Shown here: one piece after another, positions 36,324 to 40,686 of the stretch
Layout: every line of letters starts with the position of its first letter
Position numbering within the stretch: position 1 is the stretch's first letter
Virus record (IMG/VR): IMGVR_UViG_3300007513_000041
Span: 1-60,212 of that record
Direction: 5' to 3' (one strand)
Source of the DNA: a virus
Taxonomy: Duplodnaviria > Caudoviricetes
Length of the DNA: 60,212 nt
Position numbers and translations under genes: made by a program
The notes under the pieces: generated by a model
Told to the model about the DNA's origin: nothing
Database searches by the model: none
Seen by the model: only the letters and a program-made list of their open reading frames with translations

Positions 36324-36678
36324 TAGCTATACCACTCCAATATATTAACTTCATAAACGGATTGACACCGTTGTCATTAATGAACTTCCCATTATCATTA
36401 GGCTTTACAATATTGCGTAGGTTATTTAATCGTTCCTTTTCCATAGCTATTCTTTTCTTTTCAGGTATCACGTTATTAAGCACACGCTGGGTGTTTCGTT
36501 CCTTATCCATATCTTGTACAGCTACGACTCCATGAATATGCATACGCTCCCTATCATCTACAGTGTAGGGTGTGTTAACTCTCTTACCATTTACCAAGTG
36601 GCACGTTTTCTTCACGCGATCAATAAAAGGCGACCTATATGAATTGGTGTTTATACTACAATCATCTGCAGTCATCAA
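36316..36678 (-). CDS. Hypothetical early protein
   Basis: ORF overlapping the next gene. Confidence 0.5.
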   Translation of the reverse strand: MMTADDCSINTNSYRSPFIDRVKKTCHLVNGKRVNTPYTVDDRERMHIHGVVAVQDMDKERNTQRVLNNVIPEKKRIAMEKERLNNLRNIVKPNDNGKFINDNGVNPFMKLIYWSGIAND

Positions 36679-36799
36679 AATCTAAAGGTTGCCAGCTTGC
36701 ATAAAAAGGTATTGTTTTGTGCCTGACTTGTGCCTAGCATTTTTCAAACAGTCGTCTAACACTGTATACATACATTAATCACAACAACAGTAGAAGCAG

Positions 36800-37450
36800 T
36801 AGTATGCGTAAGCATTAGGCGTAAGCCCTACATATCGTTATACTTATTGTTATATAATATATGTATTTGATTAATAGATTACACTACCATACAGTATAAT
36901 AATACGCGTACGCGTATGTATAATAATAAATATAAATACATATCTTTATGCGTAATTAGGCACGAAGTTTCAACCTGCATACGTTACGCGCGTAATATAT
37001 AATATAATATAATATATAATATAATATAATAATAACATAGTATAATACTAATATAATAATAGTGTACATATACGCGTAAGGCACAAATATTTCCTGTACC
37101 CATAGCCCTCACATGCGCATCTGCCCTTACACGTACGCGTACTGTACGCGTAATAGGATACATTATTTTTAACTTCAGACAACTCGCCTGCTGCGTTGTC
37201 TAGGCGTAATGAGCAGCAACTCCCTTCGCTAATTACACGGGCATCTCGTTTCTTTACACATATTTCAGGCTCTCCATACGCGCGCGTACCCTAAGAGATA
37301 TAATTTCCATGCCTATTTACTCATGAATTGTTATACCCTAATACGCGTATGTGTATGCGTAATAATATATATAATAATAATATAATATAATAATATAATA
37401 TAATAATATAATATATAATATAAATAAATAATAATAATAATACATAGTGT
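36800..37450. repeat. AT-only tracts interleaved with TACGCGTA-type palindromes (candidate origin or terminus element)
   Basis: G/C-free run ~37360-37442; near G/C-free run ~36993-37060; ATACGCGTACGCGTAT palindrome 36902-36917; further (T)ACGCG motifs. Confidence 0.6.
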
Positions 37451-37681
37451 ACAAATTACCTTAGTAGTGTACGGATTTAACCTAAGCCTAGGGTTAATGA
37501 CTGATTTTGACACTAACCCTAGGTTAAGTAAGTATGCTATGTTCGTATCTCATAGGCTCACACATTACTTACGCTCAGTCAAAACCGAAGACCAATGGCT
37601 TGTTTCTCCTTTTCCTTGACCCGAACGAATTTTTAACGGTGGATAATGAATCCACTTACGGAAATACGTTAACTATAAAGA

Positions 37682-37783
37682 GTGGAACGAATGGGATTTG
37701 AACCCATAACAGCCAGCAATTAACACTGTTTAGACGCAGTTAATTTACGCCTCACTATGATACCAAGTTTCACCATCTTCCAC
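37682..37783 (-). ncRNA. tRNA-like element with non-canonical anticodon region
   Basis: Stem GTGGAAGA/TC(G)TTCCAC; D-arm GTGA-AACTTGGTA-TCAT; T-arm ATGGG-TTCAAAT-CCCAT; TATA box upstream. Confidence 0.7.
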
Positions 37784-37811
37784 ACGCTTAGTTATTAGCT
37801 AAGTATAATAT

Positions 37812-37949
37812 GTTATTATATAATATATTGCGCATATGCTCATGGTTTCTCTGTCCCAAAACGGGATGAACTGGGATGAATGTTCTCCAATACAACCAAA
37901 GGGATTTACCCCTAAGCGCTCTATTAAGATGACGATATTATATAATAAC
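37812..37949. promoter_or_regulatory. Divergent TATA promoters forming a 15-bp inverted repeat
   Basis: GTTATTATATAATAT (37812-37826) and ATATTATATAATAAC (37935-37949). Confidence 0.55.
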
Positions 37950-38281
37950 TGTAATACTAGGAATTACAACCTAGGGACAATTACTGCTCAAAGGCAAACC
38001 TAGGGACAACTTTTACGACCTAGCGTCTAATAACGTGATGTTTTTTATACACCCTATATCGTATTTTGATAGATATTTAGAACAAACTTGTTGCCTAAAA
38101 AATCCCAAACTTACTTTATCCATTATGTAGACTATGAAATTATCATATATCATTGAGCGTGTAAACTCAGTGATTTGGCTCGCTGAATATATGATAACTG
38201 TAAGTAGATTATATGATAAGAAAGAAAGGGTCATTACGTGACCAATCGGATATTTTACAAGTAAACTAGGCGTTATTCTGT

Positions 38282-38599
38282 CTAGATTGCAGGTGCTATT
38301 GAAACAATGACCGATTGAGTATCGATCTTTAAGCCTTTAGCCTGCGCATATTCGCGCAATTTCATAAAGCCAGTTTTGTCCTTAGTCCTAAAACCAGACT
38401 GAGGCAAAAGTACGCCTTTTGAAACTAACTCAGCAAGAATGCCTGATGTTTTGGCTTCTACTGCTGGTGCTAGTGCTTCAATAACAGGTGTTTCGATTTC
38501 TGCAGTCACTGAAGAAGCTTCAACCAAATTAAAACCATGAGCCTTAGCCCATGCCTTAACTAGTGCCTTTTCAGTAGCTGACGAGTCTTTACTACCCAT
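38282..38599 (-). CDS. Small putative DNA-binding protein (Lsr2-like helices)
   Basis: LVKAWAKAHG and LREYAQAKG; TTTATATATAA box upstream. Confidence 0.55.
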   Translation of the reverse strand: MGSKDSSATEKALVKAWAKAHGFNLVEASSVTAEIETPVIEALAPAVEAKTSGILAELVSKGVLLPQSGFRTKDKTGFMKLREYAQAKGLKIDTQSVIVSIAPAI

Positions 38600-38770
38600 C
38601 AATAAACATAGGTTGCCTACTTATATATAAACTAGATGTTTTGTGCCTAGATAGGCGTGAAAATCTCCCACTAAGTATAGAATCTCTAATTAACGTACCG
38701 AGTGCTTATATCGAAAATCGTGTTTTTTGTCGTTGCAAGGATACAGATTCGAGCATGAATACGAATCGGA

Positions 38771-40550: not shown

Positions 40551-40686
40551 GACAAACTATTATTATAGTAGCTTATAAAGTAGTCTAGCTGGTTAGCCTA
40601 AAACCAGACCTCTCTTTCGAGTATGCAGACTCACACCACTAGACATACAGAAGAATACTTATAAGTTAATATATTTATTGTGTTGT

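Follow-up and report, generated by a model that had tools for sequence, protein, structure and literature searches.

We analysed a complete or nearly complete virus record from IMG/VR (60,212 bases; CheckV estimate, 96%), referred to throughout as the window. Its gene products include MCM, RadA and a large terminase, and its portal protein bears a distant likeness to the portals of haloarchaeal tailed viruses (23–25% identity); on this basis we class it provisionally as a tailed virus of marine archaeal type. The plus strand carries the genes up to ~25 kb, the minus strand those between ~27 and 40.5 kb, and the plus strand once more those beyond 40.85 kb. An open reading frame (ORF) at 741–1763 encodes 340 amino acids with about nine repeats ending in a TGNATDFGD-like motif and is possibly a repeat-built fibre or propeller protein. 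The element studied here sits in the minus-strand gene block, within ~1.3 kb (36679–38012) that holds no convincing ORF, and the flanking genes on both sides are on the minus strand. Seven neighbouring proteins were searched against Pfam and PHROGs, of which six had no family and one matched DUF7220 and phrog_4276, of unknown function. A 52-nt direct repeat (71%) at 36673–36724 and 38597–38648 covers the start and upstream region of two minus-strand genes; it carries an AGGCAC motif and a TATA-like box and is a candidate promoter or leader common to both.

The original prediction placed a structured RNA of no recognized family at 37460–37681, and its direct readings of the sequence are accurate. 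No ORF of more than 60 amino acids covers this interval, and three stems lie where they had been described: TTAACG (37633–37638) with CGTTAA (37667–37672) around GTGGAT (37639–37644) and ATCCAC (37650–37655), here called H3; GTAAGTA (37528–37534) with TACTTAC (37566–37572) around CTATG (37537–37541) and CATAG (37551–37555), here called H2; and a 10-bp stem, H1, in which CCTAGGGTTA (37487–37496) pairs with TAACCCTAGG (37514–37523). Folding better than shuffled sequence, named at the outset as a test, was seen on both strands and far more on the minus strand: the 222 nt reached −66.5 kcal/mol there (z = −4.86; 0 of 200 shuffles as good), compared with −51.2 kcal/mol (z = −2.07; 6 of 200) for the plus strand. 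A search with Rfam 15 (4,227 models) gave no match at the gathering score in 37460–37681 or anywhere else in the window, and at E ≤ 10 the interval contained nothing but the edges of matches centred on an adjoining tRNA-like piece.

Relatives were gathered through the portal protein, which has 413 relatives in IMG/VR; 80 loci were retained. Only one of these, L008 (portal identity 92%), extends far enough upstream and aligns with the element. The nearest relative by neighbour protein, G001/L002 (82% identity), begins at about window position 37523 and is thus uninformative on H2 and H3. A degenerate H2 pattern retrieved two more copies in metagenome contigs, L088 and L089, which are 87% identical to each other and whose flanking gene has no relative in the window or any locus and no Pfam or PHROG family. 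A covariance model, R1, was built from these four sequences, and model and pattern scans together placed the module in four places only: window 37524–37678, L008 5744–5893, L088 243–404 and L089 677–848. The four copies scored 129–164 bits, and nothing else in 832,844 bases of loci was convincing.

The same model did not find the module in the 80 loci of portal relatives, the copy in L008 apart, or when run over the full length of five related virus records, of which two have a completeness of 90% or more; the module is therefore not needed by the virus family. Other searches yielded no copy beyond the four. Two patterns run against the GTDB genomes had no match; among viral contigs, an H2 pattern and a pair of H3 patterns reached the L008 contig alone; and blastn of 36700–38300 against phage records gave no further homologue. 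Neither the neighbour protein (38282–38602) nor a pattern for the 3′ part of the tRNA-like piece, run on viral contigs, led to homologues beyond the four, and the alignment of the L088/L089 flanking protein yielded no further copy in viral contigs. Rfam had no match in L008 4900–6500 and only two chance-level matches in L088/L089, elsewhere in the contigs. No description of such an element was found in those parts of the literature on marine archaeal viruses that the search covered.

Two weak R1 matches in the full search, in L084 and L077 (E = 1.4 and 4), are not counted as homologues of the module, as they coincide with a separate element ahead of the portal gene. The window has this element at the divergent gene junction, 40575–40650, where GTCTAG...CTAGAC surrounds CTGG...CCAG and is followed by ATGCAGACTCACACCACTAGAC. 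Its core sequence occurs in 13 of 18 relatives examined, ten of which have the full form with GTGTAG/CTACAC replacing GTCTAG/CTAGAC; L081 keeps GTCTAG/CTAGAC, and L076 and L086 have the downstream ACTCACACCACTA part only.

Conservation among the four copies of the module is confined to H2, H3 and short tracts beside them; the spacer between the hairpins and the flanks are unalignable. Read on the minus strand, H3 precedes the spacer and H2 follows it. H3 (37633–37672, minus) has an invariant outer 6-bp helix (UUAACG/CGUUAA), a one-sided internal loop of 7–11 nt with an invariant AUU, an inner helix of 6–7 bp and a loop of 3–5 nt. For the inner helix, the window has GUGGAU/AUCCAC, L008 has GUGAGU/ACUCAC, and L088 and L089 have GUGACGU/ACGUUAC. 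H2 (37525–37571, minus) consists of a 10–12-bp outer helix, an asymmetric 3-nt AGC bulge on the 5′ side that is kept in all four sequences, a 5-bp CUAYG/CRUAG helix and an invariant 9-nt loop, AGAUACGAA. The variable spacer domain (37573–37632, minus) is edged by conserved AAAAGUCG-like and AGCG tracts and in the window forms a long local hairpin. Its lengths in the four copies (60, 52, 64 and 74 nt) differ by amounts that are not multiples of three, so no common reading frame can span both hairpins. That so rare a module is conserved, with spacer and flanks otherwise unalignable and a flanking gene in L088 and L089 that has no relative in the window, counts in its favour.

The loops and bulges of both hairpins are invariant, and the stems keep pairing with seven pairs changed on both sides (four in H2, three in H3). 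In the minus-strand alignments, 109 of the 116 helix cells are paired. H2 accounts for 61 of 68, with six G·U cells, and only 1–3 of 500 shuffles matched it in paired share, in pairs and cells changed on both sides or in covariation score; the number of further pair types is a weaker measure, reached by 51 of 500. All 48 cells of H3 are paired, with G·U in L088 and L089, and two of 500 shuffles matched its covariation score, its paired share and its number of cells changed on both sides, compared with 71 for pairs changed on both sides and 33 for further pair types, the weaker measures here. Slid registers gave 3–57% pairing for H2 and 19–58% for H3, and RNAalifold recovered identical H2 and H3 helices from the alignments alone. 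Covariation in homologues had been set as a test by the original prediction, and pair-keeping changes are indeed present in both hairpins. The sample is four sequences, effectively three lineages given the likeness of L088 to L089, and the shuffle counts are not probabilities; we read the figures as supportive, not as proof.

Further readings of the conserved parts were tried and dropped. One was a contact joining ACGAA of the H2 loop to the linker UUCGU that follows H3; it would span 5 nt in the window, 4 nt in L088 and L089 and 3 nt in L008, and was judged too weak. C/D-box, K-turn and group II domain V readings, assessed by eye, were set aside because the defining motifs are lacking.

The stems had first been written on the plus strand, and here the comparison points the other way, with full pairing of the conserved helices confined to the minus strand. 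On that strand the 116 cells comprise 101 Watson–Crick pairs, eight G·U, no A·C and seven others; on the plus strand the eight G·U cells become C·A mismatches. They occupy five alignment positions, three of them common to L088 and L089, so that the independent events number about five, with no case of the opposite kind. On the minus strand, all four sequences have the full architecture of H2 as their minimum free energy (MFE) structure; on the plus strand only L008 does, and the window in part. In every copy H2 is at least as stable on the minus strand (−12.6, −16.6, −14.0 and −15.9 kcal/mol on the minus strand versus −10.2, −16.3, −10.5 and −8.0 on the plus strand). H3 with both nested helices is likewise the MFE structure in all four on the minus strand. 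In both genomic contexts the flanking genes lie on this favoured strand as well.

Stability beyond the two hairpins gives a mixed picture. The window spacer folds to −16.1 kcal/mol on the minus strand versus −3.3 on the plus strand, and a 951-nt region of L089 to −253.8 kcal/mol (z = −1.82) on the equivalent strand versus −212.7 (z = −0.17). The L008 spacer has the opposite preference (−9.5 minus versus −12.7 plus), with two wobble pairs on the plus strand, and the whole L008 core also folds better on the plus strand (z = −4.29 versus −1.73 with a simpler neighbour-preserving shuffle; −3.00 versus −1.30 in another test). With the same simpler shuffle, the cores of L088 and L089 do not exceed shuffled sequence in stability on either strand (z = +1.19 and −0.22, and +0.35 and −0.48, respectively). 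Over the 774 columns of the L088/L089 pair, RNAalifold could not tell the strands apart (8 versus 10 compensatory and 13 versus 11 one-sided pairs). Taken over the conserved helices, the strand asymmetry favours a minus-strand RNA or single-stranded DNA over a protein site in duplex DNA.

H1 (37482–37528, no strand assigned) behaves differently from H2 and H3. It is an inverted repeat whose 10-bp core (CCTAGGGTTA/TAACCCTAGG) pairs perfectly around a 17-nt loop, and it is specific to the window: it is missing at the matching place in L008, L088 and L089 and is replaced by a different sequence in G001. The H1 core motif CCTAGGG recurs as two direct repeats (CCTAGGGACAA; 37970–38009, plus strand) that start 29 nt apart, at 37970 and 37999, and four of the seven CCTAGG sites in the window fall within 37487–37999. 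At the same spacing and the corresponding place, L008 (6068–6111) has two unrelated 15-nt repeats, TAGGTCTTACTGCCT. This pattern suggests binding sites of a co-evolving, lineage-specific DNA-binding regulator, and our best guess is that H1 may be a palindromic operator for such a protein.

These features, and the similar palindrome-type element before the portal gene in the window and its relatives, invite an extension to the whole locus, in which all of the inverted repeats would be duplex operators of dimeric regulators and the covariation would come from half-sites changing together. For H1 such a reading is likely; for H2 and H3 it is unlikely. Their fixed loops and varying stems are the opposite of what a palindromic protein site in duplex DNA would be expected to show, since here the spacers are invariant and the half-sites vary. 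Eight stem cells that are G·U on one strand would be mismatches under duplex symmetry, with none of the reverse kind, and the asymmetric bulge of H2 is present in every copy. As an account of the element, we regard operators as quite improbable.

The original prediction went further and joined H1 to a tRNA-like domain in an RNA of ~320 nt, with a switchable pseudoknot in two registers, that would be freed by tRNA-processing enzymes. The complementarities on which the pseudoknot was built are real: TGACTGA (37498–37504) and TTTTGAC (37505–37511) in the H1 loop each complement overlapping parts of TCAGTCAAAA (37575–37584). When the adjoining 158 nt were shuffled, at least one 7-nt complement to the loop arose in 209 of 2,000 shuffles and two distinct ones in just 57, so the double complement is uncommon but not rare. 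Both registers depend on the H1 loop, which leaves the pseudoknot without comparative support: an H-type pairing of loop to downstream sequence is not present in L008, L088 or L089, and in G001 the sequence is replaced. The target at 37575–37584 is, on the favoured minus strand, already paired within the local spacer hairpin. By these comparisons, H1 and the pseudoknot are outside the conserved device, and the case is a reminder that palindromes specific to one lineage, along with a loop complement at chance level, are readily over-interpreted as a pseudoknot.

The tRNA-like element (37683–37781, minus) lies directly 5′ of H3, 1–10 nt away on the same strand. In the cmscan alignment its T arm is canonical (AUGGG-UUCAAAU-CCCAU) and a D arm and loop with GG are present; the acceptor stem is bulged, and 42 nt stand where the anticodon arm should be. 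The Rfam tRNA model (RF00005) scores it at 23.2 bits (E = 0.17), below the gathering score of 29, and ARAGORN reports nothing at default settings and, only at -ps90, a tRNA-Asn(GTT) with a 25-nt intron at 32/33 and a weak stem. Genes for tRNA-Leu and tRNA-Arg are mentioned for group B magroviruses (PMC5434244). An Rfam scan found no tRNA match beside the module in any of the three other copies (L008, L088 and L089). The piece is probably tRNA-derived, and on this distribution it appears to be an exchangeable neighbour of the module, not a defining domain; a single conserved RNA made of both parts is not what the homologues contain. We consider the RNA of ~320 nt, released by tRNA-processing enzymes and switching between two pseudoknot registers, highly doubtful. 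What stands of the structured-RNA claim is a non-coding element with conserved secondary structure in H2 and H3; H1, the pseudoknot and the tRNA link are confined to the window.

On its other side the module adjoins a repeat-rich region. Iteron-like GCGTAA and TACGCGTA motifs, together with the first of two (TAATA)n blocks, occupy 36806–37362 (no strand assigned), which holds 8 of the 13 plus-strand GCGTAA motifs of the window and all six copies of TACGCGTA. Each (TAATA)n block closes with TAGTGTACA (37060 and 37445), and the second block (37360–37453, likewise without strand) adjoins the 3′ side of the element as read on the minus strand. The region at 36806–37362 is 77–79% identical in G001 and has aligned blocks in L008, and five relatives at a greater distance (L013, L014, L020, L027 and L046) have TAGTGTACA after other low-complexity blocks. 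It looks like a replication origin or a regulatory hub (36806–37455), and we put it forward as a candidate for either. The unit between the AT-rich blocks (37069–37345) folds to −85.2 kcal/mol on the minus strand (z = −2.30) versus −52.5 on the plus strand (z = +0.19) and has blocks conserved in L008 and G001, for example TACGCGCGCGTACCCTAAGAGAT; it is possibly a second non-coding RNA.

Upstream of the module, a TATA-like box, AACATATTATA (37800–37822, minus), can be read ~25–30 nt before the 5′ end of the tRNA-like element. A spacing of 25–30 nt fits archaeal promoters, and the identical 11-mer also occurs upstream of the element in L008. We rate it a weak promoter candidate, as the AT-rich surroundings make such matches cheap.

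The position of the module raises the possibility that H2 and H3 act not as RNA but as single-stranded DNA at or beside an origin, for example as priming or helicase-loading signals on an unwound minus strand. The module abuts the iteron-like repeats and two AT-rich blocks, the virus encodes MCM and RadA, and the strand asymmetry would fit as well, G·T pairs also being tolerated in DNA hairpins. Other observations weigh against this. In L088 and L089 no AT-rich blocks or GCGTAA iterons adjoin the module, which lies there in a non-coding region of ~950 nt (L089 250–1204; L088 1–762); in both contexts it is flanked by co-oriented genes, as a transcribed element would be; and the repeat region is itself no more than a putative origin. 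We hold single-stranded DNA to be an unlikely form of action.

The L088/L089 region contains features of its own. A palindromic, TTATCGTGTATCGATAA-like 17-mer occurs twice in L089, ~600 nt apart, the second copy directly after H2. A further hairpin, H4, is found in L008 (5925–5985) and L088 (20–80), flanked by GGTTAAC and GGCTYACC and located 5′ of H3 in the minus orientation, where the window has its tRNA-like piece. Its stems are CCUGCG/CGCAGG in L008 and CCCGCG/CGU(U)GGG in L088, with one pair changed on both sides, and it is displaced by ~190 nt in L088.

Unrelated contexts and absence from most relatives would also be explained if the module belonged to a small non-autonomous mobile or recombining cassette, and both the duplicated 17-mer of L089 and the displaced H4 could be taken in that sense. 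There are no flanking repeats around the module in the window or L008, and none of the seven neighbouring proteins searched against Pfam and PHROGs is a transposase or integrase. We think a cassette very improbable, and mobility would in any case be compatible with an RNA function.

Judged by sequence comparison, the element is a real, conserved, rare and unclassified structured motif. The interpretation that we favour, with modest confidence, is that H2, H3 and the variable spacer form the conserved core (~150 nt) of a virus-encoded non-coding RNA of the minus strand. It draws on the loops, bulge and internal loop that stay fixed while the stems co-vary, in three independent sequence contexts, and on wobble pairs that occur in H2 and H3 on the minus strand only. 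The core RNA would be transcribed from the minus strand of the window, as are the genes to either side of it. Those of its nucleotides that are both unpaired and invariant (loop AGAUACGAA, bulge AGC and internal-loop AUU) may contact a protein or another RNA or DNA segment. The stems would serve only to present them, whatever is added at the 5′ and 3′ ends (the tRNA-like piece, H1 and H4) would be exchangeable, and so would the spacer. More tentatively, transcription might start from the TATA-like box at ~37810 and pass through the tRNA-like piece, H3 and H2 into the (TAATA)n/GCGTAA region, where the RNA might serve a neighbouring replication origin or control region, either by priming or by regulation. 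Position suggests this role at the adjacent origin-like region, and we consider it rather unlikely; promoter, ends and function of the RNA are all inferred.

Several known viral and plasmid RNAs offer resemblances, which serve as comparisons and not as grounds for membership; they include tRNA-linked viral RNAs, large phage RNAs and origin transcripts. GOLLD and ROOL, large phage non-coding RNAs often found beside tRNA genes, are like the window element in being virus-borne, non-coding and multi-hairpin, in their long intergenic setting and, for the window, in the tRNA-like sequence alongside. Both have Rfam models, and neither they nor any other family matched the element in the window, L008 or L088/L089 even at E ≤ 10; the conserved core here is just ~150 nt, and the host domain is archaeal-type. 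The TMERs of murid gammaherpesvirus 68 are tRNA-linked hairpin RNAs, and the window similarly has a tRNA-like piece followed by stem-loops on the same strand. The tRNA link is not conserved here (no tRNA match in three of three other copies), the tRNA-like piece is itself sub-threshold and a tRNA-like unit inherited together with its hairpins, as in TMERs, is not what the copies contain. To our knowledge, archaea have no microRNA pathway, a further difference from the TMER setting.

ColE1 RNA II and the origin transcripts of T7 and T4 recall the arrangement of a candidate promoter and a structured RNA leading into an AT-rich block with iteron-like repeats. That likeness is one of position only, to a region that is a putative origin, and L088 and L089 lack such a neighbour. 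Packaging RNA of the phi29 type resembles the element as a small viral RNA of two domains, its loops conserved and its stems free to vary, from a tailed double-stranded DNA virus. It is represented in Rfam, which gave no match here; nothing ties the element to packaging genes, and it is absent from most relatives that share the portal.

For the little-known non-coding RNAs of uncultivated marine archaeal viruses, invariant loops on covarying stems provide a small (~150 nt), concrete object for probing, pull-downs and metatranscriptome searches. The adjoining repeat region is a candidate replication origin for the virus group, for which none has been mapped in those parts of the literature that our search covered. 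In its most ambitious form, which we regard as distinctly unlikely, the proposal is that H3, spacer and H2 are the invariant core of a new modular family of marine archaeal virus non-coding RNAs, in which the fixed loops dock a protein of virus or host, while the RNA controls or primes the adjacent iteron/AT-rich origin and carries exchangeable 5′ modules recruiting host RNA-processing enzymes. If this is true, family members would measure ~300 nt in the clade of the window and up to ~900 nt in the L088/L089 type, and the exchangeable 5′ modules would be a tRNA mimic in the window and H4 in L008 and L088.
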